Translations under genes and position numbers: made by a program
The notes under the pieces: model-generated
Seen by the model: only the letters and a program-made list of their open reading frames with translations
What the model was told of the DNA's origin: nothing
The model's database searches: none
Origin: an uncultured virus (IMG/VR IMGVR_UViG_3300027914_001419)
Taxonomy: Duplodnaviria > Heunggongvirae > Uroviricota > Caudoviricetes
Reading direction: 5' to 3' (one strand)
IMG/VR virus record: IMGVR_UViG_3300027914_001419
Length of the DNA: 20,000 bases
Part shown: piece after piece, positions 1,009 through 15,467 of the stretch
How positions within the stretch are numbered: position 1 is the stretch's first letter
How the letters are laid out: every line of letters begins with the position of its first letter

Positions 1009-1929
1009 ACGCTGTTCTCCTTTCGGTTTTTCCGCCGTGGCTGTCCCGCCCGGTACGGATATTGTTCTTCTACTATGCGATGCGCCCAGGTCTTTCATGT
1101 GCGCTATCATCTCGTCAAAACTCTTCATGCCGTCTGCCAGACCCGCTTCAATCGCCTGTCTGCCGGTGAAGATCCGCGCATCGGCGACCTCATCGGCGAC
1201 CTTTTGCCGCTCCATGCCGCGATAGTCGGCCATGGAATCGACAAACGCGCCATACAGATAATCGACCCGTTCCTGCATCTGGCCCCGGTCCTCTTCGGAC
1301 AGCGGCCCGTAGGGATGGCCGACGCCCTTGTATTTCCCGGCGGTAATCAGCGTGGTTTTTTCCCCGCGCTTTTCTTCCTGTTTAGAGATATCCCGGTGCA
1401 TGGCAATGACGCCTATGGAGCCAAGCTCCGTGGCGTTGCTGCCGATGTAGGTGGCTTCCGTGGCCGCTCCCAAAAGCTGGGCCGCGCTGGTCATGTAACC
1501 ATCGGTCCAGGCCATGAGCGGCTTTATCGCCGAGGCGTTGCGGAGAAATTCGGCCGTGTCGAACAACTGGTTGACCGCGCCGCCGGGGGAATCGAAATTG
1601 AGCAGGATAGCGGTCACGGCCGGGTCCTTCAGCGCGCTTTCCACATCGTTGCGGATGGCCGCGTAGGAGGTGGCACCGGAGATCTCCTGAAACATCGTCG
1701 CCCGCGGAATCATCGGTCCCATTACCGGGATGACCGCTACCCCGTCCATAACCGTCGTGGGGAGCCGCGACCCGTCCAGCCGCTTGCCGGTTGACGCCTC
1801 GATGCGGGCGATGTCCTCTGGAGACAACCGCCCGTTACGGGTCAGGTGCGCCTCGTAGATGTCCCACATCAACGTCAGGGTCTCGCCCCGGATAGCCCAG
1901 GGGCTCTGTAAAATCGTCAGTACACTCAT
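607..1929 (-). CDS. S49-family prohead protease / capsid assembly protein (lambda gpC-like)
   Basis: Motifs FDSPGG, MTSAAQ, GSIGV, TAGKYK and ARIFTGRQAIEAGLADG. Follows the portal gene with an ATGA overlap. Confidence 0.92.
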   Translation of the reverse strand: MSVLTILQSPWAIRGETLTLMWDIYEAHLTRNGRLSPEDIARIEASTGKRLDGSRLPTTVMDGVAVIPVMGPMIPRATMFQEISGATSYAAIRNDVESALKDPAVTAILLNFDSPGGAVNQLFDTAEFLRNASAIKPLMAWTDGYMTSAAQLLGAATEATYIGSNATELGSIGVIAMHRDISKQEEKRGEKTTLITAGKYKGVGHPYGPLSEEDRGQMQERVDYLYGAFVDSMADYRGMERQKVADEVADARIFTGRQAIEAGLADGMKSFDEMIAHMKDLGASHSRRTISVPGGTATAEKPKGEQRMTREDLQQQHPALYAEIFEEGKQAGIAEGRTAGANDERARVMSILDIPGPSAKAHRDIIMDGVKNGLSAGDTALALQRKEAEVLAKAADDIQTGATQAAPVVDASMDAASEKVKEAACGDAMARAAEDWVKRN

Positions 1930-3596
1930 TCCGCCTCCGGAAGATCGGGGTTCTGGACAGGGGCTTCCTTTACGGCGGCCGGGGTTTCCGTCTTCGCGCC
2001 CGCCGGGGGTATCCCTTGTGTTGCCCGCATCTTCTCTTCCTTGCCCCGCTGTACGATGTTGGTTTCCCAGTCGCCGCCGTTCATGGCCGCTGTTTCCTGG
2101 GATAGCGTCGTGATGCCGAGGGCCGAGCGCCGTTCCGCCGCCTCCACCTCGTCCACCGGGTTAATAATCGGTTTGGACGGGCCGGTCCATTCGTGCCCCA
2201 TCCACGCCGCACGAATCATCGGATCGCTGAAAAAGCCGGGGGCGTAGATAGTGCCCTGGGCCACTTCCTGGGCCAGCCACACGGCAAAGACAGGGTCGCA
2301 ATGGTCTTCGACCAGTTCGGCCCGCATGCACAGGAAGAAACGCCAGGCGTCCTCCATGGCGGCCCGCGCCGCGCTGTAGCTGGCGGTATAGTGCTTTATC
2401 ACTACCTCATACGGGATGCCGATACGCAGCCCGATCTGGCGCACGCACGCGAGAAAGAACGGGTCGAAATTGGCGTTGGGCAGGTTCGGGTCCGCTGTCT
2501 GTATCTCTTGGTCTCTCCCCAGGCCGACCACCGCGCCGTAACCCAGGCGGATATTGCCGGTCGTGGCCGCGCTCTCGCCTGCTCCGGTCTGAACCGTCAT
2601 GCCCGGCAGCCGCCGCACCGCCGGGGCCAGCGGCGTATTGTCCAGACTCTGGCCGGTGCTCTTGATGAACACGGTAAAGAGCGCCGACACCACGGCCCGC
2701 TTCAGTTCGGCCTTGGTCATACGCGCCATGTCCTTGAGGGGCTCCAGCACTCCGGCCAGCATGGGAATGCCCCGCGTCTGGCTCGGCCGTTCGGGCCGGT
2801 AGTAGTGGAGCACGTTCCGCAGGCCGGTTTTGCTGTTGAAGGCCGGGTACGGGTCCCATACCATCCGGTCGGGGTCGGCATAGAGCACATTGCCGGGATG
2901 GCCGCGAGTGAGCCAATAGCGCACCGGCGCGCCGTCTTCGTCTTTCTCCACGCCGCCGGTAAAGCCCCGGCGGTCGGGCTGTTTGTTGGGGTTGCACAGC
3001 CGGTCGGCCTCTATCGCCTGCATCCGGAGGGGGTTGGTCAGGCCCGGCAGTGGTTTGACCGGCAGAAGGGTGATGGCCTCGCCATTGATGATGCGGGACC
3101 GGAGGGCAAGCTGGGCATGGCCGTTAAAAGACAGGGTCCGCTCGATGTCGCAATCCTTTGAGCCTGCCCACAGCTTCCAGCGGCGCTCGAGGTTGCGTTG
3201 CCAGGCGTCGGCTTCCGGGTCGGACAGGCCCAACAGTTCGCGGTCGATGTGGCTTTGCAGGGTGAGCCCGACGCCGACGGTATTCATGATGGTGGTGTTG
3301 ACAATGCCGCCCGCCACCGGCTGGTTGCGCACTGCGTCACGCGAACGGGAGCGCATGTCGTCCAGACCGGCCAGGGATGAATCGGCATCGGAGGGAAATG
3401 GGGTCCATTCGCCCATCTCGCGGCCAGCTCGATCCGCGCCGTCATACCCGCCGCCGGAGGAAAAGGCTTCCGACACCAGGGACATCTGGGCGCGGGCCTG
3501 CATCCGTTGCGAGGCCCGGACCGGCGCGAAATACTCCACGATCCTGTCGATGAAGTTTCCCGCTATCAATTTTTCAACTGCGCGGTCTTTCAGCAT
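1926..3596 (-). CDS. Phage portal protein, lambda family
   Basis: 556 aa. Motifs RSRDAVRN, VGVGL, IEADRL, GGVEKDEDGAPVRYW, RPSQTRGIP, YSAARAA and INPVDE. Lies between the gpW-like and S49 genes. Confidence 0.95.
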   Translation of the reverse strand: MLKDRAVEKLIAGNFIDRIVEYFAPVRASQRMQARAQMSLVSEAFSSGGGYDGADRAGREMGEWTPFPSDADSSLAGLDDMRSRSRDAVRNQPVAGGIVNTTIMNTVGVGLTLQSHIDRELLGLSDPEADAWQRNLERRWKLWAGSKDCDIERTLSFNGHAQLALRSRIINGEAITLLPVKPLPGLTNPLRMQAIEADRLCNPNKQPDRRGFTGGVEKDEDGAPVRYWLTRGHPGNVLYADPDRMVWDPYPAFNSKTGLRNVLHYYRPERPSQTRGIPMLAGVLEPLKDMARMTKAELKRAVVSALFTVFIKSTGQSLDNTPLAPAVRRLPGMTVQTGAGESAATTGNIRLGYGAVVGLGRDQEIQTADPNLPNANFDPFFLACVRQIGLRIGIPYEVVIKHYTASYSAARAAMEDAWRFFLCMRAELVEDHCDPVFAVWLAQEVAQGTIYAPGFFSDPMIRAAWMGHEWTGPSKPIINPVDEVEAAERRSALGITTLSQETAAMNGGDWETNIVQRGKEEKMRATQGIPPAGAKTETPAAVKEAPVQNPDLPEAE

Positions 3597-3835
3597 GGCG
3601 GAATGACTCCGTATACCCGTATGCCGCCGCCCCCGGCCAGCTCGCGCACTTTGCCGTCCCAGAACTCGAGGTTGCGGCGCACCTCCGCCGCGTCGGCCCT
3701 GGTAAGGCTGCGCCCGCCCGAGGTCGTATTGATGCTGAAGGACTGCGCGCCGGAGGCAAGGGCCGCATCCGCCGTCATCCAGGCGGCCAGTTGAGTCTTT
3801 GCTTCGGCAAGGGTGATTCCGTTATCGTCGGGCAT
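3590..3835 (-). CDS. Head-tail joining / head completion protein (gpW-like)
   Basis: 81 aa. Motif ITLAEAKTQLAAW...GRSLTRADAAEVRRNLEFW. AGGAG RBS; overlaps the portal start. Confidence 0.8.
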   Translation of the reverse strand: MPDDNGITLAEAKTQLAAWMTADAALASGAQSFSINTTSGGRSLTRADAAEVRRNLEFWDGKVRELAGGGGIRVYGVIPPC

Positions 3836-4036
3836 CAAGGATCTCCTGGGGAGTTGGCGTGGGGCGTTATATGGTCGGCCGCTATTTTCCCGCTACCCAG
3901 AGCGGGCGGGAAGGGGTATAAGGTGACAAAAGGTGGTATTTTTCCAAGAAAATGCAGGATGGGGGTTTTTGGGGAGAAGTTTTTTCTTGATTCTTTTCTG
4001 GCCATGGCGGCCGGGAAGCTTATGGACGAACGGGCG

Positions 4037-4078
4037 GAAAAAAAGAAAGGCGGGGTTTCCCCCGCCTTTCTTTTTTTC
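4037..4078. terminator. Bidirectional rho-independent terminator
   Basis: Perfect 19-bp inverted repeat gaaaaaaagaaaggcgggg-tttc-ccccgcctttctttttttc, giving a U tract on both strands. Confidence 0.85.
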
Positions 4079-4189
4079 AGGCTTCGTCTTTGGCAACAAG
4101 GCTGATGGTCTGGTTGAGAAGGGTTTCGATGTCTCTGAACCAGTATCTGAAGGGTTTTTCAAGGGGGTTTTTTCTTGAGGTGTTCTCCG

Positions 4190-4417
4190 TTACGCCTTTT
4201 CCGGCTTTATCTCGATGATGAATGTTTCGTTGAAATAGTTTGCAAGTAGTTGAATTGTGTCAATGGTGGGGTGCCCGATTCCCTTCATGTACCGGCTAAC
4301 CGCCGATTGAGTCAGTCCGATTTCTCTTGCGATAGCTGATTGACTGGACTTGGCAACGGCTTCACGAATCAAAATAACTATTCTTTCCGGTGTTTTTGAA
4401 TTGCCTCTACCCTTCAT
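4190..4417 (-). CDS. Small XRE/Cro-C1-type HTH protein (paralog 4)
   Basis: SQSAIAREIGLTQSAVSRYMKGIGHP HTH; ends TFIIEIKP; ATGA overlap with the upstream paralog. Confidence 0.85.
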   Translation of the reverse strand: MKGRGNSKTPERIVILIREAVAKSSQSAIAREIGLTQSAVSRYMKGIGHPTIDTIQLLANYFNETFIIEIKPEKA

Positions 4418-4665
4418 AAAACCCCCACAATATCGCCAGATTGCGGCTTGATTTGAATATCAAATGTTTTGCCGGTATAGTCTGAGAGGCGCTGAAGCGT
4501 GGTAAACGTTGGCTCCCCAATTCCATCACGATAGCGGGCGAGTGAAGCCATACCGATCCCTGTTGCATTGGATAATGCCAAAAGTCTACTTTTCGTCAAA
4601 AGCTCTTTAACCAGGTCAATCACCCAAACTGGTGTTTTTCCTGTGCCTCTTCCTCTTGGGCTCAT
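4414..4665 (-). CDS. Small XRE/Cro-C1-type HTH protein (paralog 3)
   Basis: GKTP...LSNATGIGMASLARYRDGIGEPTFTTLQRLSDYTGKTFDIQIKP; ATGA overlap with the upstream paralog. Confidence 0.85.
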   Translation of the reverse strand: MSPRGRGTGKTPVWVIDLVKELLTKSRLLALSNATGIGMASLARYRDGIGEPTFTTLQRLSDYTGKTFDIQIKPQSGDIVGVL

Positions 4666-4877
4666 AGATCCTCCGGTTTAATCTCAATGGTGAAAGTGGT
4701 TTTGAAATAGTTTGCCAACTTTTGAAGACTGGCATATGTCGGCTCGGTTGCTCCTGCGAGATATTTGTCCACGCTGTTCGGGTTAATTCCTGATTTTTTG
4801 CAAAATTGGTTCAGGCTTATCTTCTCAGGAATTTCTGAATTGAGTAGGTCAACAACTCTTTGGAATGTTTTTCCCAT
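4662..4877 (-). CDS. Small XRE/Cro-C1-type HTH protein (paralog 2)
   Basis: SLNQFCKKSGINPNSVDKYLAGATEPTYASLQKLANYFKTTFTIEIKP; GGGGGA RBS. Confidence 0.85.
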   Translation of the reverse strand: MGKTFQRVVDLLNSEIPEKISLNQFCKKSGINPNSVDKYLAGATEPTYASLQKLANYFKTTFTIEIKPEDL

Positions 4878-4909
4878 AATTCCCCCTGCTCTATCTAAAG
4901 GCTGAAAAG

Positions 4910-5407
4910 CTAATCCTGTTGCCCGGACGGTTTAATCTCTATAATAAATGTACGCCCAGTATAATCAGCTAGTCGCTGTATACTAGAGAGACGGGGTTCA
5001 CCTATGCCCTTCAAATATCGCTGTATACTCAAAAGAGTTAATCCAGACTCTCTGGCCACAGCGCTTTGGCCCTTTTCTGCGACTAATTCCGTCAGCAACT
5101 CAACCAACCATTCAGGTGTTTTTCCCAGTATGATTTCCTGAGATTTATTTGATGTAATCAGCTCCATTTCAGTTATAGCCATAACTGATATCTCAAGATA
5201 TTCGGCAATCTTTGTGACAAAAGCCTCTGTCAACCTCTGTTTTCCAGTTAATAATCTACCAACGTAAGACGATGAGAAACCGGAACTGGCTCCGATTTCA
5301 GCAAATAATCCGTAAGTCCCCCATTCTCCCCTCTTAGTAAGTTCTTCGATTATTCGCTGTAATACAAATGTCTGATTTTCTTTTAAGAACATTGCTATCG
5401 TTTGCAT
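4910..5407 (-). CDS. Double-HTH XRE-type protein (paralog 1), 165 aa
   Basis: Likely start ATG 5407 (MQTIAMF) after GGGGAGGG. N-terminal HTH IGASSGFSSSYVGRLLTGKQRL; C-terminal HTH GQSAVARESGLTLLSIQRYLKGIGEP...TFIIEIKP. Confidence 0.8.
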   Translation of the reverse strand: MQTIAMFLKENQTFVLQRIIEELTKRGEWGTYGLFAEIGASSGFSSSYVGRLLTGKQRLTEAFVTKIAEYLEISVMAITEMELITSNKSQEIILGKTPEWLVELLTELVAEKGQSAVARESGLTLLSIQRYLKGIGEPRLSSIQRLADYTGRTFIIEIKPSGQQD

Positions 5408-5516
5408 TATCCCTCCCCACTGCTTAATCTTCGTTTCGATTCCCTGGCATCTACCCAAATTGGCCGTGCGCAGGTGCCCCGGCTGCCAGCGAAACGATAG
5501 ACGGCGGCCGCAGCGA

Positions 5517-5879
5517 CTACTCCGCCCACCGCGCCGGGTCAATCTCGTACTCACGGCGGAAGACCTCCACCGATACGGCGGTTATCCTGATGCCCTGAGA
5601 GGGCCGCAAGCCGTTTTCGCCCTCTTTCGCGCCGTCATCAACCGCTATCAGCTTGCCCTCTTTTACCCGGCCCAGTGCCCACTTGCCGCTTTTTCCGAAG
5701 ATAGCCCCGGCCTCGTCGGGCGAATAGCAGAGGTTTTCCAGGATATGCCGCTTCTTTACCTCGGAAATGTCCGCCATTGTCACCCTCAGCCGTGGCATAT
5801 CCTTGTTCTGTTCGATCCGTATCGCTTCCTTTTCCGTCACGCACCACCCCGTTTCCCGCCTTGCGGCGTCAGATTCCAT
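5517..5879 (-). CDS. Xis/MerR-like winged-HTH DNA-binding protein, possibly a late-gene regulator
   Basis: YSPDEAGAIFGKSGKWALGRVKEGKLIAV resembles an HTH_17-type domain. Overlaps the terL stop; exact start uncertain. Confidence 0.55.
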   Translation of the reverse strand: MESDAARRETGWCVTEKEAIRIEQNKDMPRLRVTMADISEVKKRHILENLCYSPDEAGAIFGKSGKWALGRVKEGKLIAVDDGAKEGENGLRPSQGIRITAVSVEVFRREYEIDPARWAE

Positions 5880-7782
5880 TACTCAGCATTTGCGCCGCGC
5901 CGCCTGACTGATCCATCAGGTTTTCCCGCCGCGCATTATGAAAATTGCTCACATTCGCCAGCACCAGCGCCATTACCTCGCAGTCCCAGAGGTGATTCGC
6001 CCTGTTGTTCGGGTTCTGCCACAGCCCGCCCGAGTCTCTCCCTTCGGCGCAGCAGTGCCGGGCGTACTCCTCCAGGCTGTTCCGCTGGTCAACAGCGGCT
6101 CCAGACGCTTTCAGCTTCCATTGCTCCGTGGTGAATCCGCTGTGCAGAAGCCACGCGCCGGGGTCCGATGGCTCCACCATCAGCCTCAGCGCCAATTCGT
6201 CCTTGAATTTGTGGGTATTAAAGGTATGCAGCCGCACCACGCCCGGTAAAGGCTTGTTGGTGCCTGGGAAATTGGCGATGGATGAGACGCTCACCAGTTT
6301 GGTAGGGTTTCCGGAGGCCCCTTGCGCCGGGATGACTCCGGTTTTGAGGCACCACAGGTATATCTCGGTGGTCCGGTGCCCCTGGGTGTCGATAATCGCC
6401 CACGTAACCACATGCTCCGTCCCCTTCGCATCGTACCAGTTCCCGTACAGGAGCCGCTCCACCCCTGCCAGGTCCGTGACGTACCCTGCCTTTACCAGCC
6501 AGGAGGAGAGGACCTCCCCGAACCGCCAGGCCCGGACCGTATACCAGAACCCCTTGTCCTGGGTGTCAATGTGCATGGTCAGGGCATCTATGCCATGGGG
6601 CACAAGGCCGTCCGGCCGGGTGTCGCACAGCCGGAGGATGTAGTCTTCCTGCCGTTCGCTGATTTCAGGAATGTAGTCTATGGCTTCGTAGCCGTTGGCC
6701 CAGGCGGTTTTGGCGTTGAGGTCGCCGGTTTTGGCCTTGAGCCAGGCGGCGGCTATTTCGGTGAGGGGGATGTCGAGGCATTCCCAGGCCCGGTGGTGGA
6801 AGCCGACCTTTGAGGGGCGGGGTATGTCGGCGCCTTTGACGCAGTACCAGCGGCCATGGCGGATGGCGTGTTCGCGTTTGCGGTCGTCCCATACTGCGCC
6901 ACAGTTGCAGGCATATTCGACGCCGGTCTGTTCGATGGTTTCGGGGGTGGCGTCGTTCGGTATGATGAGGTGTTCGGCGTCCATGCGGACGAGTTCGCCG
7001 CAGTCGGGGCATTTGAGCCGGTATTCCCATGTCTGGTGACAGTTGAGCATGCCCTTGTAAACGAATTTCCCGGCGGGGGTGCTGGCGAAGAAGCGTTTGT
7101 AGCGGCCTTTGTAGGTACGGTTGCGCTTTTTTATGAGGGTTATGGGGTCGGCTTCCTTGCCGGCCATTTCCGGGTATTTGTCTATTTCGTCGCCAAAGCA
7201 GTGCTTGGCGCTCCAGGTGGCCATGCTGGTGGCGCTGTTGGCGTGGGCCGGAAAGATGGTGACGCCGTGTTGCAGGTTGATGCGGGCCAGGCTGGTGTCG
7301 TCCATTTTGCGCGAGAGGTAGCGGGAGAGCCGGGGCGATTTCTGCAGGGTGGGCTTGAGCTTGCCTCCGGTGATTTTAGTGGCGGCGTCTTCTGTTGGCA
7401 TGAGATAAAAAATGTTGCCGGGATCGCAGTCTATGGCCCAGCCGATGCAGTTGAGCATGGTGTTGGTTTTGCCGCTCTGCTCGATGCCACAGAACCAGAC
7501 TTCGCGGACCCAGGGCTGACCGAAGGTGTCCATGATCTTGACGGTGTGCGGGGCGTAGTCGTGCCGCCAGGGGCCTTCGTGGGCGCCGTCGGTGACGATG
7601 CGGTATTTTTCGGCCCATTCGGAAACCTTTATCTTTTCCGGGTGGCGCATGCGCAGGCGCACGGGCCGCGGGATGGCGAAGGAGACCGGGCGGCCCCGGA
7701 GGGTTTGCCGGACTTGTTCGGGCAGCCATTCGGGCAGGCCAAAGCGGGTGGTGAAGCTGATATGAAGGGCTGGCTGGTTCAT
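5869..7782 (-). CDS. terL: Terminase large subunit, lambda GpA family, 637 aa
   Basis: True start is ATG 7782 (MNQPALH), with an ATGA overlap with the upstream gene. Motifs: SEWAEKYR, EQSGKT (Walker A), CFGDEIDKYP (Walker B), ASTP, CPDCG..CNCG, IDTQD and NHLWDCEV (nuclease). Confidence 0.95.
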   Translation of the reverse strand: MNQPALHISFTTRFGLPEWLPEQVRQTLRGRPVSFAIPRPVRLRMRHPEKIKVSEWAEKYRIVTDGAHEGPWRHDYAPHTVKIMDTFGQPWVREVWFCGIEQSGKTNTMLNCIGWAIDCDPGNIFYLMPTEDAATKITGGKLKPTLQKSPRLSRYLSRKMDDTSLARINLQHGVTIFPAHANSATSMATWSAKHCFGDEIDKYPEMAGKEADPITLIKKRNRTYKGRYKRFFASTPAGKFVYKGMLNCHQTWEYRLKCPDCGELVRMDAEHLIIPNDATPETIEQTGVEYACNCGAVWDDRKREHAIRHGRWYCVKGADIPRPSKVGFHHRAWECLDIPLTEIAAAWLKAKTGDLNAKTAWANGYEAIDYIPEISERQEDYILRLCDTRPDGLVPHGIDALTMHIDTQDKGFWYTVRAWRFGEVLSSWLVKAGYVTDLAGVERLLYGNWYDAKGTEHVVTWAIIDTQGHRTTEIYLWCLKTGVIPAQGASGNPTKLVSVSSIANFPGTNKPLPGVVRLHTFNTHKFKDELALRLMVEPSDPGAWLLHSGFTTEQWKLKASGAAVDQRNSLEEYARHCCAEGRDSGGLWQNPNNRANHLWDCEVMALVLANVSNFHNARRENLMDQSGGAAQMLSNGI

Positions 7783-8756
7783 GCGGCGTCCTCTTGATGG
7801 TCTTCGAACATGCCTTCTATTCGTCCGGCGGCCAGGGTGTCGTTGAAGGCCTTGGCGAGGATTTCTTCCATGCCTTCGTAGACTTCCGGGGCTCTTGTGG
7901 GGTCTCCGCCGGAGAGGTGGATGATGTGGGCGGACCCGATGTGGAGCTGGTGGCGGATGGTGTCGCGCAGGGATCCGACGAGGGCGGCGAGTTGCGCCCA
8001 GGCTTCGTCGCGGTGGAGCCATTTGGCGTTTTGTTCGCGCTGGAGGTCTTCGGCCTGGATTTCGGCTTTTTTGGCGTCGGCGATGGCTTTGCGGGTGTCG
8101 GCTTCTTCGCGCTGGCCTGCGAGGTCCACGGGAGAGGCGGACCGCCGTTCTACGTCGAGCTGCTGGCCGTATTGGAGGACCTGGAAGCGGGAGACGGTTC
8201 CGTCTTTGTGGACGGAGGGAAAGCCTGCTTCGCAGTCGTTGTAGAATTTGCCGCGGCTGATTTTGTAGCCCTGGGACTGAAGCCAATTGTGGGCCTGGAT
8301 GCGGTTTTTGAAGCGTTCGCCTTCGGGGGCAGGGGCTTCTTCGGGGAAGTAGGCCTGCCAGAGACGGTCGATGGTTTCTTCGTATAGTTCGCGGGCGGCG
8401 TCGAGGTTCGCTTTAGTTTCTTTGCCGGGGTGGTTTTTGAAGGCGAGCATGGTGGCGTCGCGGCCGTCGCGGACCATGGACAGTTCGTCTTTGTCGTTGT
8501 CGGGGACGATTTCGAGCAGCTTTTTGAGCTTGTCGCCTTTGTAGACGATATTTCCGGCTTTTTTGCCTGCGTTGCAGCTCTTGCAGGCGGTTTTGAGGTT
8601 GGAGATTTCGTTTTTGCCGCCTTTTGATACGGGGGTGACGTGATCTATTTCCAGTTCGGCTTCGGTGGCGGATTTGCCGCAATACTGGCAGGTGTAGCCG
8701 TCGCGCCGGAAGACTTCGAAGCGTAGTTTGTCGTTGATTTTTGTCCGATCCGCCAT
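7779..8756 (-). CDS. HNH endonuclease fused to a probable terminase small subunit
   Basis: N-terminal RFEVFRRDGYTCQYCG...IDHVTPVSKGG.NEISNLKTACKSCNAGK is a clear HNH domain. C-terminal REEADTRKAIADAKKAEIQAEDLQRE..WLHRDEA resembles the Nu1-type coiled coil. Translationally coupled to terL. Confidence 0.7.
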   Translation of the reverse strand: MADRTKINDKLRFEVFRRDGYTCQYCGKSATEAELEIDHVTPVSKGGKNEISNLKTACKSCNAGKKAGNIVYKGDKLKKLLEIVPDNDKDELSMVRDGRDATMLAFKNHPGKETKANLDAARELYEETIDRLWQAYFPEEAPAPEGERFKNRIQAHNWLQSQGYKISRGKFYNDCEAGFPSVHKDGTVSRFQVLQYGQQLDVERRSASPVDLAGQREEADTRKAIADAKKAEIQAEDLQREQNAKWLHRDEAWAQLAALVGSLRDTIRHQLHIGSAHIIHLSGGDPTRAPEVYEGMEEILAKAFNDTLAAGRIEGMFEDHQEDAA

Positions 8757-14319: not shown

Positions 14320-14607
14320 TCAGAATGGGCATTTGCCGTCGCTTGACGGGGCTTCGCCGTCAAGCAGGGCTATGGCCTGCCGGCGTATTTCGGATTTCAG
14401 GGCTTCATCGGTTATGTTGACGTGTTTTTTCCAGGCATCATTGCCGTCGCGGCCGGTGAATTTTTCGGCCGGTTCGCTGATCCAGGTTTCGCCGTTGTCT
14501 TTGCGGCACAGCGTAATACCGCGGACGATGAGCGGCTGGAATTGAACGTCGAAGGCGGCAACCAGAATTCCCGCTGTTTCAATTTTGCGAAAGTTTACGA
14601 TTTTCAT
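14320..14607 (-). CDS. SpoVG-like nucleic-acid-binding protein
   Basis: LVAAFDVQF..LIVRGITL...GETWISEP.EK...DG...WK..V pattern; located in the replication module. Confidence 0.6.
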   Translation of the reverse strand: MKIVNFRKIETAGILVAAFDVQFQPLIVRGITLCRKDNGETWISEPAEKFTGRDGNDAWKKHVNITDEALKSEIRRQAIALLDGEAPSSDGKCPF

Positions 14608-15379
14608 CAGTCCTCCAAGGGGTGAAGTCTCTCAATCTCTGGCCGTAGTCGGGTAGTATGCCGAGGTCGTAACAGGTGTCTTCGATGGCGGTGTTGCATT
14701 TGCCGCCAAAATCGTTGATGCAGCGGACAAGGCCTTCGATGGTGGGTGATCCGCGAGGGAACCGGCGTTCGTCGGGTATGGTGAGGTAGACACAGGCTCT
14801 GGAGATGAGCTCTTCGAGGTCGATGTTTTTGAGGAGCTTGGCGATCATGGCATAGTGCCGGTCCAAGGCCACGAATGCGGACTTTGTTATCCGGCCATAG
14901 GCGTGCTGCCACCAAGCGACGAAGTATTGATGGTCGGAGGGCGCGCTTTTTGGTGGCGCGCTCCCTTTAGGGATATTGGTTCTTTTGGGTTCAAGGGGTG
15001 ACATTTTGTCATTAATTGATGACATTTTGTCATTAATCGGTGTGTCTGGGCCGGGAATTAATGACATTTTGTCATGATTTTTTGACGGCTCCGGCTGAAT
15101 TAATGACATTTTGTCATTAATTTTTAGCTGATATATGTTGGATCGATAGGATCCGTTTTCCCTGGTCCGCGGTTTGTTTACCAGAAAACCCCTCTGTTCC
15201 AGTTTTACTATGCCCCGGATTACGGTTCTGACGCTATCGCCGCACTTCTTCGCAAGCACTTCCCTGCTGGGCCAGCATACGCCTTCGTCATTGGCGCTAT
15301 CTGCCAGAGCCAGCAACAGCATTTTTTCCGATTTTGGAAGGTCCATCATCCAGACGATAGACATCAGTTTGATGCTCAT
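14579..15379 (-). CDS. Phage replication initiator with N-terminal winged HTH, 266 aa
   Basis: ATG 15379 after GAGGA. MSIKLMSIVW...EKMLLLALADSANDEGVCWPSREVLAKKCG.SVRTVIR.IVKLEQRGFL. Contains internal iterons and lies upstream of the helicase. Confidence 0.85.
   Translation of the reverse strand: MSIKLMSIVWMMDLPKSEKMLLLALADSANDEGVCWPSREVLAKKCGDSVRTVIRGIVKLEQRGFLVNKPRTRENGSYRSNIYQLKINDKMSLIQPEPSKNHDKMSLIPGPDTPINDKMSSINDKMSPLEPKRTNIPKGSAPPKSAPSDHQYFVAWWQHAYGRITKSAFVALDRHYAMIAKLLKNIDLEELISRACVYLTIPDERRFPRGSPTIEGLVRCINDFGGKCNTAIEDTCYDLGILPDYGQRLRDFTPWRTDENRKLSQN
14999..15122. repeat. Probable phage replication origin: four palindromic iterons
   Basis: TGACATTTTGTCA starts at 14999, 15020, 15062 and 15104 (spacings 21, 42 and 42 bp), flanked by ATTAAT/AATTAA, inside the initiator gene. 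Confidence 0.85.
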
Positions 15380-15467
15380 TATTTCCTCATGGTTCCGGCC
15401 CCGGATTACGCGATAAAAAATCTGATGCGCAGGCGGGGAATTACACCCCGCCTGAATCATTGCCGGA

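Follow-up and report, generated by a model that had tools for sequence, protein, structure and literature searches.

Why would a tailed phage carry four different DNA-binding proteins among its packaging genes? The question is raised by IMG/VR virus record IMGVR_UViG_3300027914_001419, an uncultured member of the Caudoviricetes, from which a stretch of 20,000 nucleotides (nt; hereafter the window) was analyzed. Between the terminase and head genes of this window lie four co-oriented genes, g1 to g4, whose products contain helix-turn-helix (HTH) domains of the XRE type. We tentatively read them as DNA-binding-domain-only copies of the repressors of other elements, which would act in trans on these rivals and would probably be dimerized by a shared C-terminal tail; we place this reading just short of probable. 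The family to which the genes belong, a strand-tailed variant of the XRE fold found recurrently at phage packaging genes, is new even if that reading is wrong.

A block of strand-tailed HTH modules

The block comprises the following genes and domains, with protein lengths in amino acids (aa):

5407..4910, minus strand: g1, 165 aa, two HTH domains (open reading frame (ORF) list; Pfam HTH_3/HTH_31, two matched stretches)
5159-5407, minus strand: N-terminal domain of g1, a distinct 'GxWGTxGL' type of HTH
4913-5158, minus strand: C-terminal module of g1 (g1C), recognition region LTLLSIQRY, tail TFIIEIKP
4877..4662, minus strand: g2, 71-aa module, recognition region INPNSVDKY, tail TFTIEIKP
4665..4414, minus strand: g3, 83-aa module, recognition region IGMASLARY, tail TFDIQIKP; ATGA overlap of its start with the g2 stop
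4417..4190, minus strand: g4, 75-aa module, recognition region LTQSAVSRY, tail TFIIEIKP; ATGA overlap of its start with the g3 stop

Number, orientation and coordinates of the genes are those proposed in an initial annotation of the window, and so is the total of five HTH domains, which follows from the two separately matched stretches of g1. The linkage of the last three genes was likewise confirmed, as 4-nt ATGA overlaps were read at both the g2/g3 and the g3/g4 junction; g1 and g2 are spaced by 32 nt, and a purine-rich Shine-Dalgarno stretch can be read 5' of the start in all four genes. Against a cut-off of 23 bits for Pfam HTH_3, g1 (40.1 bits, E-value 3.8e-10), g2 (32.2 bits, 1.1e-7) and g4 (43.3 bits, 3.9e-11) score above and g3 (20.7 bits, 4.3e-4) below. 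We nevertheless regard g3 as a clear family member because it reaches 128 bits against a hidden Markov model (HMM) made from the four window modules (a circular score, as g3 is itself part of that HMM), has outside orthologs at 63% identity, and is 40% identical to its sister modules. In the alignment of the four window modules, the C-terminal modules are 40-51% identical to g4, with K8, T9, Y43, G46, P50, Q56 and the tail TFxIxIKP invariant; a common motif combined with differing recognition regions, as the annotation had described, is thus borne out. The N-terminal HTH of g1 is more distant (13% identity to the modules). By alignment, the two-domain build of g1 recurs in protein P0043 (59% identity) and on metagenome contig L003 (53%).

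Pfam, PADLOC and NCBIfam scans found no peptidase or toxin family in g1-g4 or in the neighboring 120-aa ORF, in keeping with the earlier claim that neither a peptidase domain nor an adjacent toxin partner exists. An S24 peptidase is absent among the Pfam matches of g1-g4, which sets them apart from cleavable repressors of the LexA/CI type, and for the long relatives described below a peptidase family is absent among their listed precomputed Pfam domains. PADLOC and NCBIfam gave only weak matches at the level of the HTH (RstR, 21-33 bits against a cut-off of 80).

The AlphaFold2 model of g4, computed with 15 sequences (mean predicted local distance difference test score (pLDDT) 85.9), contains helices at residues 11-23, 26-33, 37-44 and 52-62 and no fifth. 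As helix 5 closes the core of five-helix XRE proteins, g4 is predicted to be a structural variant within the family. With Foldseek, no row was obtained at E <= 1e-3; the best rows were 2kpj and HipB chains, the latter at E 0.03-0.07 and a template modelling (TM) score of ~0.6. VIA identified a generic XRE fold, with Z values of 6-7.5 (maximum 7.5) for many unrelated regulators and with the N-terminal domains of P22 c2 and lambda cI among the fold matches. The sole sequence match in the Protein Data Bank was 2kpj (3e-6), and searches of the ESM Atlas yielded generic HTH clusters only.

For the tail, the best structural analogy is the 'beta-lid' of HipB and Mycobacterium tuberculosis HigA3, in which C-terminal strands pair between subunits, joined in HigA3 by an N-terminal strand as well (PMC7340258). 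By analogy with this build, in which the strands behind the four helices hold the dimer together (PMC7340258), the dimerizing strand inferred in the annotation is plausible. Unlike those antitoxins, the window genes have no toxin partner, and their sequence similarity to HipB and HigA3 is not significant.

Separate histories of core and tail

Relatives were collected with the four-module profile in a word-indexed search across 5.8 billion proteins, which returned only 41 proteins including three of the window's own, and by an exhaustive HMMER search over 1.84 billion cluster representatives, with 3030 matches at E <= 1e-3, 500 at <= 1e-10 and 8 at <= 1e-30. They come in two forms. Short forms of 70-94 aa end in a strand-like tail, with variants such as TFVIEIGP, PVVIELLP and TLVLEFKP, and long forms of ~110-340 aa continue through an ordinary helix 5 (VSVxWLRG) into a variable C-terminal region that has no Pfam match. 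In the four tailed domains of the window, TFxIEIKP occupies the position of this helix 5. The tail positions of the profile are reached by 13 of the best 150 representatives, and the remainder match to about position 69 only.

A tree was calculated from 52 core columns, with the tail excluded, for 50 rows (18 tailed, 32 with helix 5), leaving out L002, L005 and P0001-3 (same as the window), L009 (identical to L008), P0039 (truncated) and P0040/P0041 (distant). The four window paralogs fall in four different clades of this tree, intermixed with long forms. For three of them the nearest cores belong to long forms, namely P0029 for g2 (84% identity), P0012 for g1C (69%) and P0030 for g4 (63%), the core neighbors of g4 being the long forms P0020-P0030; g3 and the short forms P0005 and P0006 make up a starred clade, to which the long form P0034 is a looser neighbor. 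Mapped onto the core tree, the tail label changes 12 times, with at least 5 changes forced by starred branches. The label is hardly clustered, as shuffling gave a mean of 14.8 changes and values as low in 33-36 of 500 shuffles, and constraining the 18 tailed rows together, a group defined by its tail although only after the tree had been inspected, was rejected (log-likelihood difference 119.9, approximately unbiased test p-AU 9.3e-6). Tail type and HTH core therefore have different histories. Among the window paralogs, the tails share 55-73% protein identity and 52-73% DNA identity with many synonymous differences, and the cores, with 34-55% amino-acid identity, are less alike. Since the protein identity persists despite the synonymous differences, the tail appears to be old and kept by selection, without recent gene conversion between neighbors.

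All tailed short forms recovered came from viral or metagenomic DNA. A tail-pattern scan of a collection of genomes from 185,579 species gave 29 pattern matches, none of them confirmed, and none of 11 family matches in five bacterial genomes was tailed. In all four readable viral contexts, the window included, the position is at the packaging module: in L001, two modules are fused in a single protein whose gene lies on the opposite strand, between the portal and a MuF-like gene, L078 starts within a short gene that is followed by HNH, terS, terL, portal and protease, and in L080 the short gene lies 44 bp before terS. Three further short metagenome contigs have no phage context, and two of these show arrays, consisting in L003 of a g1-like gene and a 134-aa HTH gene with an ATGA overlap. 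Positions 2-1129 of the other, L004, hold a co-oriented, overlapping set encoding a 77-aa tailed short form, a 129-aa long form with a C-terminal zinc ribbon, a 45-aa CxxC...CxxC zinc-ribbon ORF and a 124-aa protein with an HTH like the N-terminal one of g1. Several HTH domains thus occur at four of the seven independent tailed-short-form loci (window 5, L001 2 in a fused chain, L003 3, L004 3), and at least two modules per chain are present in 24 of 192 family proteins, five of the 24 being giant weak-repeat proteins that we regard as generic. The survey of HMM matches and neighborhoods that the annotation had called for accordingly revealed recurrent arrays and fusions, and not mainly singletons.

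Protein P0055 combines a module, an HTH like that of the g1 N-terminus and a second module. A 246-aa protein of Desulfobulbus elongatus (L015, 5998-6738) carries an N-terminal family module and a C-terminal HTH that is 53% identical to the g1 N-terminal domain, in the reverse of the domain order of g1. In L078 (~300-330) and L080 (~7855-7885), a G-rich element (GGGGGG..GTCAAATC) is situated near the short HTH gene and before HNH/terS; this element may be a cos site, in which case the short genes would lie at a genome end.

Long relatives, their palindromes and the candidate targets

A second scan of the species-genome collection yielded 10 loci, whose modules were then re-scored by the module HMM and considered at a threshold of >= 45 bits. 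Nine are from Desulfobacterota, with record titles naming Desulfobulbus elongatus DSM 2908, Geobacter, Geobacteraceae, Pelobacter, Trichlorobacter, Desulfurivibrionaceae and 'Deltaproteobacteria bacterium', and the tenth is titled only 'Proteobacteria bacterium'. In nine of the 10 loci all modules at or above the threshold are long forms; L024 has none at that level. The contexts of long forms were drawn from these genome loci and from six metagenome loci. At L011, L012, L016, L018, L019, L020, L021, L022 and L023, the long form is located beside an integrase and divergent from genes of the primase, PrimPol, HTH_17, Rha or Bro type, and at L015 two long forms stand in tandem in a region resembling an integrative and conjugative element (ICE), with a relaxase and a topoisomerase.

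The divergent regions contain two or three, mostly three, palindromes of 16-18 bp, interleaved with TTGAC-type promoter hexamers, and the type of palindrome goes with the class of recognition helix. The LGLAAIGRY class is associated with TTACCACnnnnTGGTAA at four loci (L007, L008, L010, L016), the IALLSxQRY class with TGACTAn6TAGTCA at two (L018, L023) and the LTQPAIHRY class with TATACAn4TGTATA at two (L021, L022); five further classes each have a palindrome of their own, giving eight types in total. By class, g1C is matched by loci such as L018 and L023, g2 by L012 and g4 by L020-L022. From their position, and following the lambda paradigm, we infer that the palindromes are operators and the long forms the master repressors of integrated elements. 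Long forms do combine an integrase neighbor, divergent replication or excision genes and repeated putative operators, whereas the window genes lie between terminase and portal, where no operator repeats were found.

The number of long forms per genome bears on what a set of four specificities might be used for. Geobacteraceae metagenome-assembled genome G003 has five long forms, each on its own contig (L109, L112, L114, L116, L117) and each with a different recognition helix, which suggests that it carries five heteroimmune elements of one repressor family; the count for G002 is three, and that for D. elongatus is three. With five and three long forms in G003 and G002, a multi-specificity cassette matches the contents of such a host, and the host of the phage is probably a Geobacter- or Desulfobulbus-like bacterium. 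P0033, among the long forms nearest to g2, was sought in viral contigs and found in none. The 'ORFs' listed upstream at long-form loci are mostly spurious, with no protein shared among them and no similarity to the 120-aa ORF of the window.

Against this background, each window module would represent the recognition helix of a different specificity class that is otherwise found in repressors of prophages, small primase-bearing islands and an ICE-like element, and it carries the conserved amphipathic strand TFxIEIKP in place of their variable C-terminal domain and helix 5. The strand would pair modules into dimers in the manner of the HipB/HigA3 beta-lid, and the dimers would sit on the palindromic operators of other elements, whether these are already resident or newly arriving. 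As the modules have no sensor or oligomerization domain, they would be deaf to the induction signals of those elements, and heteroimmune phages, co-resident prophages or satellites would be kept silent. Of the interpretations offered by the initial annotation, the comparative data agree best with the battery of repressor mimics, because the paralogs find their matches in different classes of integrase-adjacent regulators, each class having a distinct type of operator; the decoy antitoxins that the annotation also proposed found no support.

The position and composition of the block are consistent with such a role. Two features delimit it:

4040..5440, no strand: low-GC, moron-like island holding the four genes and the terminator (composition profile; GC content at third codon positions, GC3)
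~4037-4078, minus strand: hairpin terminator, stem of 19 bp preceded by an A-tract and followed by a U-tract

The GC content is 0.41-0.47 across the block (0.40-0.47 per gene) and 0.59-0.66 in the flanks, in agreement with the AT-richness noted before, and the GC3 of the four genes is 0.37-0.47 compared to 0.58-0.80 for flanking phage genes. The gap between terminase and adaptor measures ~2030 bp in the window and ~420 bp in Vibrio phage vB_VpaM_R19R, whose portal is 42% identical, so that the block is indeed an insertion between terminase and head genes. The hairpin behind it folds at -36.4 kcal/mol (z -5.6; none of 200 shuffles was as stable), which supports the strong terminator that had been proposed. 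Foreign composition and a strong terminator agree with a moron-type cassette, and we consider a horizontally acquired cassette in the packaging or late region of a lambda-like phage the best reading of the block.

Several known systems resemble parts of this arrangement. In lambdoid phages such as 434 and P22, Cro and the N-terminal domain of CI form pairs that share a fold and read the same palindromic operators. There too a short protein made of the DNA-binding domain alone has the recognition-helix type of a longer repressor, whose operators it would be expected to read; these pairs, however, form a divergent switch in which the short protein is encoded beside its long partner, whereas here a set of four specificities is situated in the packaging region of another element, and the window modules end in a strand instead of helix 5. 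In an engineered parallel, truncated CI repressors reportedly protect lactococci from P335 phages. TgrL of phage phiCbK is a phage copy of a host-side XRE family that represses host targets, including the activator of a gene transfer agent, and forms heteromers with host paralogs; it differs from the window genes in being a single early gene matched to chromosomal regulators, without a swapped tail (PMC10688885). The Cro protein of Shiga toxin (Stx) phage represses lytic genes of a co-hosted prophage and so is a small phage HTH protein directed at a rival prophage (bioRxiv 10.1101/2025.01.01.630987). Its action on the rival is a by-product of a protein that serves the switch of the Stx phage itself, unlike the window genes, which would be dedicated, foreign and multiple. 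Morons likewise form blocks of foreign composition in a late operon with a terminator behind; the window block differs from them in that no promoter of its own was detected and its cargo consists only of DNA-binding modules (PMC3594210).

If repressor copies acting in trans are what the block encodes, one mobile element would exert dedicated multi-target control over the switches of several others, a type of control hitherto seen only as a side effect of single Cro or XRE proteins, and the specificity heads and oligomerization parts of repressors would be shuffled as separate modules between resident elements and phages. Arrays or multi-specificity cassettes of repressor-domain copies in phage packaging modules were not found described in the limited collection of literature searched. 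A more far-reaching version, which we regard as improbable, is that Desulfobacterota phages carry exchangeable 'immunity-piracy' cassettes, in which the repressor heads of resident elements are joined to a universal dimerizing strand in place of the signal-sensing domain. Encoded in the packaging operon, these would lock rivals in the repressed state during particle assembly, leaving them unable to hijack replication or capsids, and the heads would be swapped by recombination at the core/tail junction as rivals change.

A number of observations weigh against repressor copies acting on other elements. The tail is a coil in the monomer model of g4, and in that of g1 (pLDDT 76, predicted TM score 0.48) the tail strand 153-156 pairs within the chain with strand 92-96, just before helix 1, at a pLDDT below 60. 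The operator and master-repressor labels are themselves drawn from position and analogy, and a common DNA specificity of short and long forms is an assumption, their recognition helices being similar and not identical. A consensus scan, which is crude and may miss differing host promoters, detected no sigma-70-like promoter upstream of g1 on the minus strand, unlike L003 and L001, where clear promoter-like hexamers precede the genes. The cassette may therefore ride on the late operon; if so, portal expression would require read-through of the terminator. The remaining points concern targets within the phage itself, and they are at the same time the case for the first alternative.

According to this alternative, the four proteins are the phage's own regulators, Cro-like or controlling late genes, acquired with or duplicated within a regulatory cassette and acting on sites in the phage genome beyond the window. 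XRE proteins are the commonest phage regulators, as also reflected in PHROG matches to 'transcriptional regulator/repressor', and since the window covers 20 kb of ~78 kb, targets could lie in the ~58 kb outside it. The short genes of L078 and L080 are located shortly before terS, a place often taken by late-gene activators of phages, and the fused form of L001 has its own promoter with palindromes, which suggests probable self-regulation rather than action in trans. We nonetheless hold this alternative to be rather unlikely: the cassette has four different specificities and a foreign GC3, it is inserted between terminase and adaptor/portal where a relative has only ~420 bp, and for each of its cores the nearest proteins are bacterial-genome regulators of integrated elements. 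Nor does the window contain candidate sites. The eight operator types do not occur in its 20 kb at <= 1 mismatch, and at <= 2 mismatches there are 0-2 sites per type, about the expectation from shuffling; with the operator search empty, no cognate site is seen near the array. A census of perfect palindromes in the window found only replication iterons and two palindromes inside g1, the iteron set being the sole one that is repeated.

It is also conceivable, if improbable, that the paralogs act mainly as mixed dimers on asymmetric composite sites, brought together by their near-identical tails, a scheme that was the main idea of the annotation and is compatible with any choice of targets. The greater likeness of tails than of cores would suit it, the ATGA overlaps would favor co-synthesis through translational coupling, and chains with two different modules fused do exist among the 24 multi-module proteins. 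The putative operators at the long-form loci, however, are symmetric palindromes, which points to homodimers.

Very improbable, in our estimate, are orphan antitoxins of the HipB/HigA type, serving as decoys against toxins of host or rival toxin-antitoxin or abortive-infection systems. The four-helix XRE bundle with a C-terminal strand is the build of HipB and M. tuberculosis HigA3 (PMC7340258), HipB chains are among the best, if weak, Foldseek rows, and sub-threshold matches to 'addiction module antidote' models were obtained. Yet the fold matches are those of generic XRE proteins, apart from that fold, which serves DNA binding, the short forms offer hardly any residues for contacting a toxin, and no toxin gene is adjacent in the window or paired with a family member in any of the ~20 long-form loci examined; the ParE/RHH and HicB genes present at L021 look like separate modules. 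Least credible of all are anti-CRISPR-associated (Aca) type autoregulators of an anti-defense operon, or fused HTH anti-defense proteins, as the likeness to anti-CRISPR/aca loci, which have a similar layout of small HTH genes in a foreign-GC block within head/packaging genes with its own terminator, is offset by a block devoid of any non-HTH cargo or adjacent anti-defense gene, by PADLOC matches that are weak and confined to the HTH, and by the lack of a palindrome upstream of g1.

The surrounding phage region

The window belongs to a lambda-like phage and has all its genes on the minus strand, in the order O-like initiator, DnaB-type helicase, HNH protein, gpA terminase, the block of g1-g4, gpW-like adaptor, portal and protease. 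The features flanking the block are:

5517..5879, minus strand: 120-aa ORF of native GC (0.59; GC3 0.74), no family match (Pfam/PHROG scans)
5869..8286, minus strand: terminase large subunit, gpA type (Pfam GpA_ATPase 4.5e-49, GpA_nuclease 2.1e-34)
3590..3838, minus strand: gpW-like head-tail adaptor (DUF6148, phrog_118)
1926..3596, minus strand: lambda-family portal (Phage_portal_2 1.9e-91)

The 120-aa ORF probably lies outside the inserted block. The terminase ORF probably begins downstream of its listed TTG start: the first ~170 residues are rich in Arg and Pro and look spurious, and the listed start is overlapped by another ORF (7779..8756), which has an HNH endonuclease domain at its N-terminus. 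Being flanked by both an A-tract and a U-tract, the hairpin terminator could act bidirectionally. It was missed by the consensus terminator scan, probably since some of the T run is taken up in the stem, and an Rfam search of 3600-6000 gave only sub-threshold matches of the small-RNA type on the hairpin.

No matches to 3500-6000 were found by blastn among 50,697 deposited phages, and tblastn with g4 returned one generic HTH match in phages and none in 72,556 plasmids. Several sludge or digester runs yielded contigs that cover the stretch in part and at low depth, and none of these spans the cassette. One contig from an RNA library covers 4224-4408 within g4, and others cover gpW and portal; DNA carry-over is possible, these contigs do not prove transcription, and stretches lacking coverage are uninformative. 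Other assemblies of the same or a nearly identical phage break at the cassette, L005 ending in g3 and L002 starting in g4, and the L013 assembly ends near the hairpin; the breaks may be due to the paralogous repeats or to the shift in composition.

Within g1, at the border of its two domains (5169-5201), a perfect 8-4-8 palindrome, TCAGTTATAGCCATAACTGA, is directly followed by ATATCTCAAGATAT. About three such 8-nt palindromes are expected by chance per 20 kb, and the g1-internal palindrome may be a chance occurrence or a binding or recombination site. Inside the O-like initiator gene (14579..15460, minus strand), ATGACATTTTGTCAT occurs at 15019-15117 in three perfect copies spaced by 42 bp, and by analogy with lambda these iterons probably constitute the phage origin.

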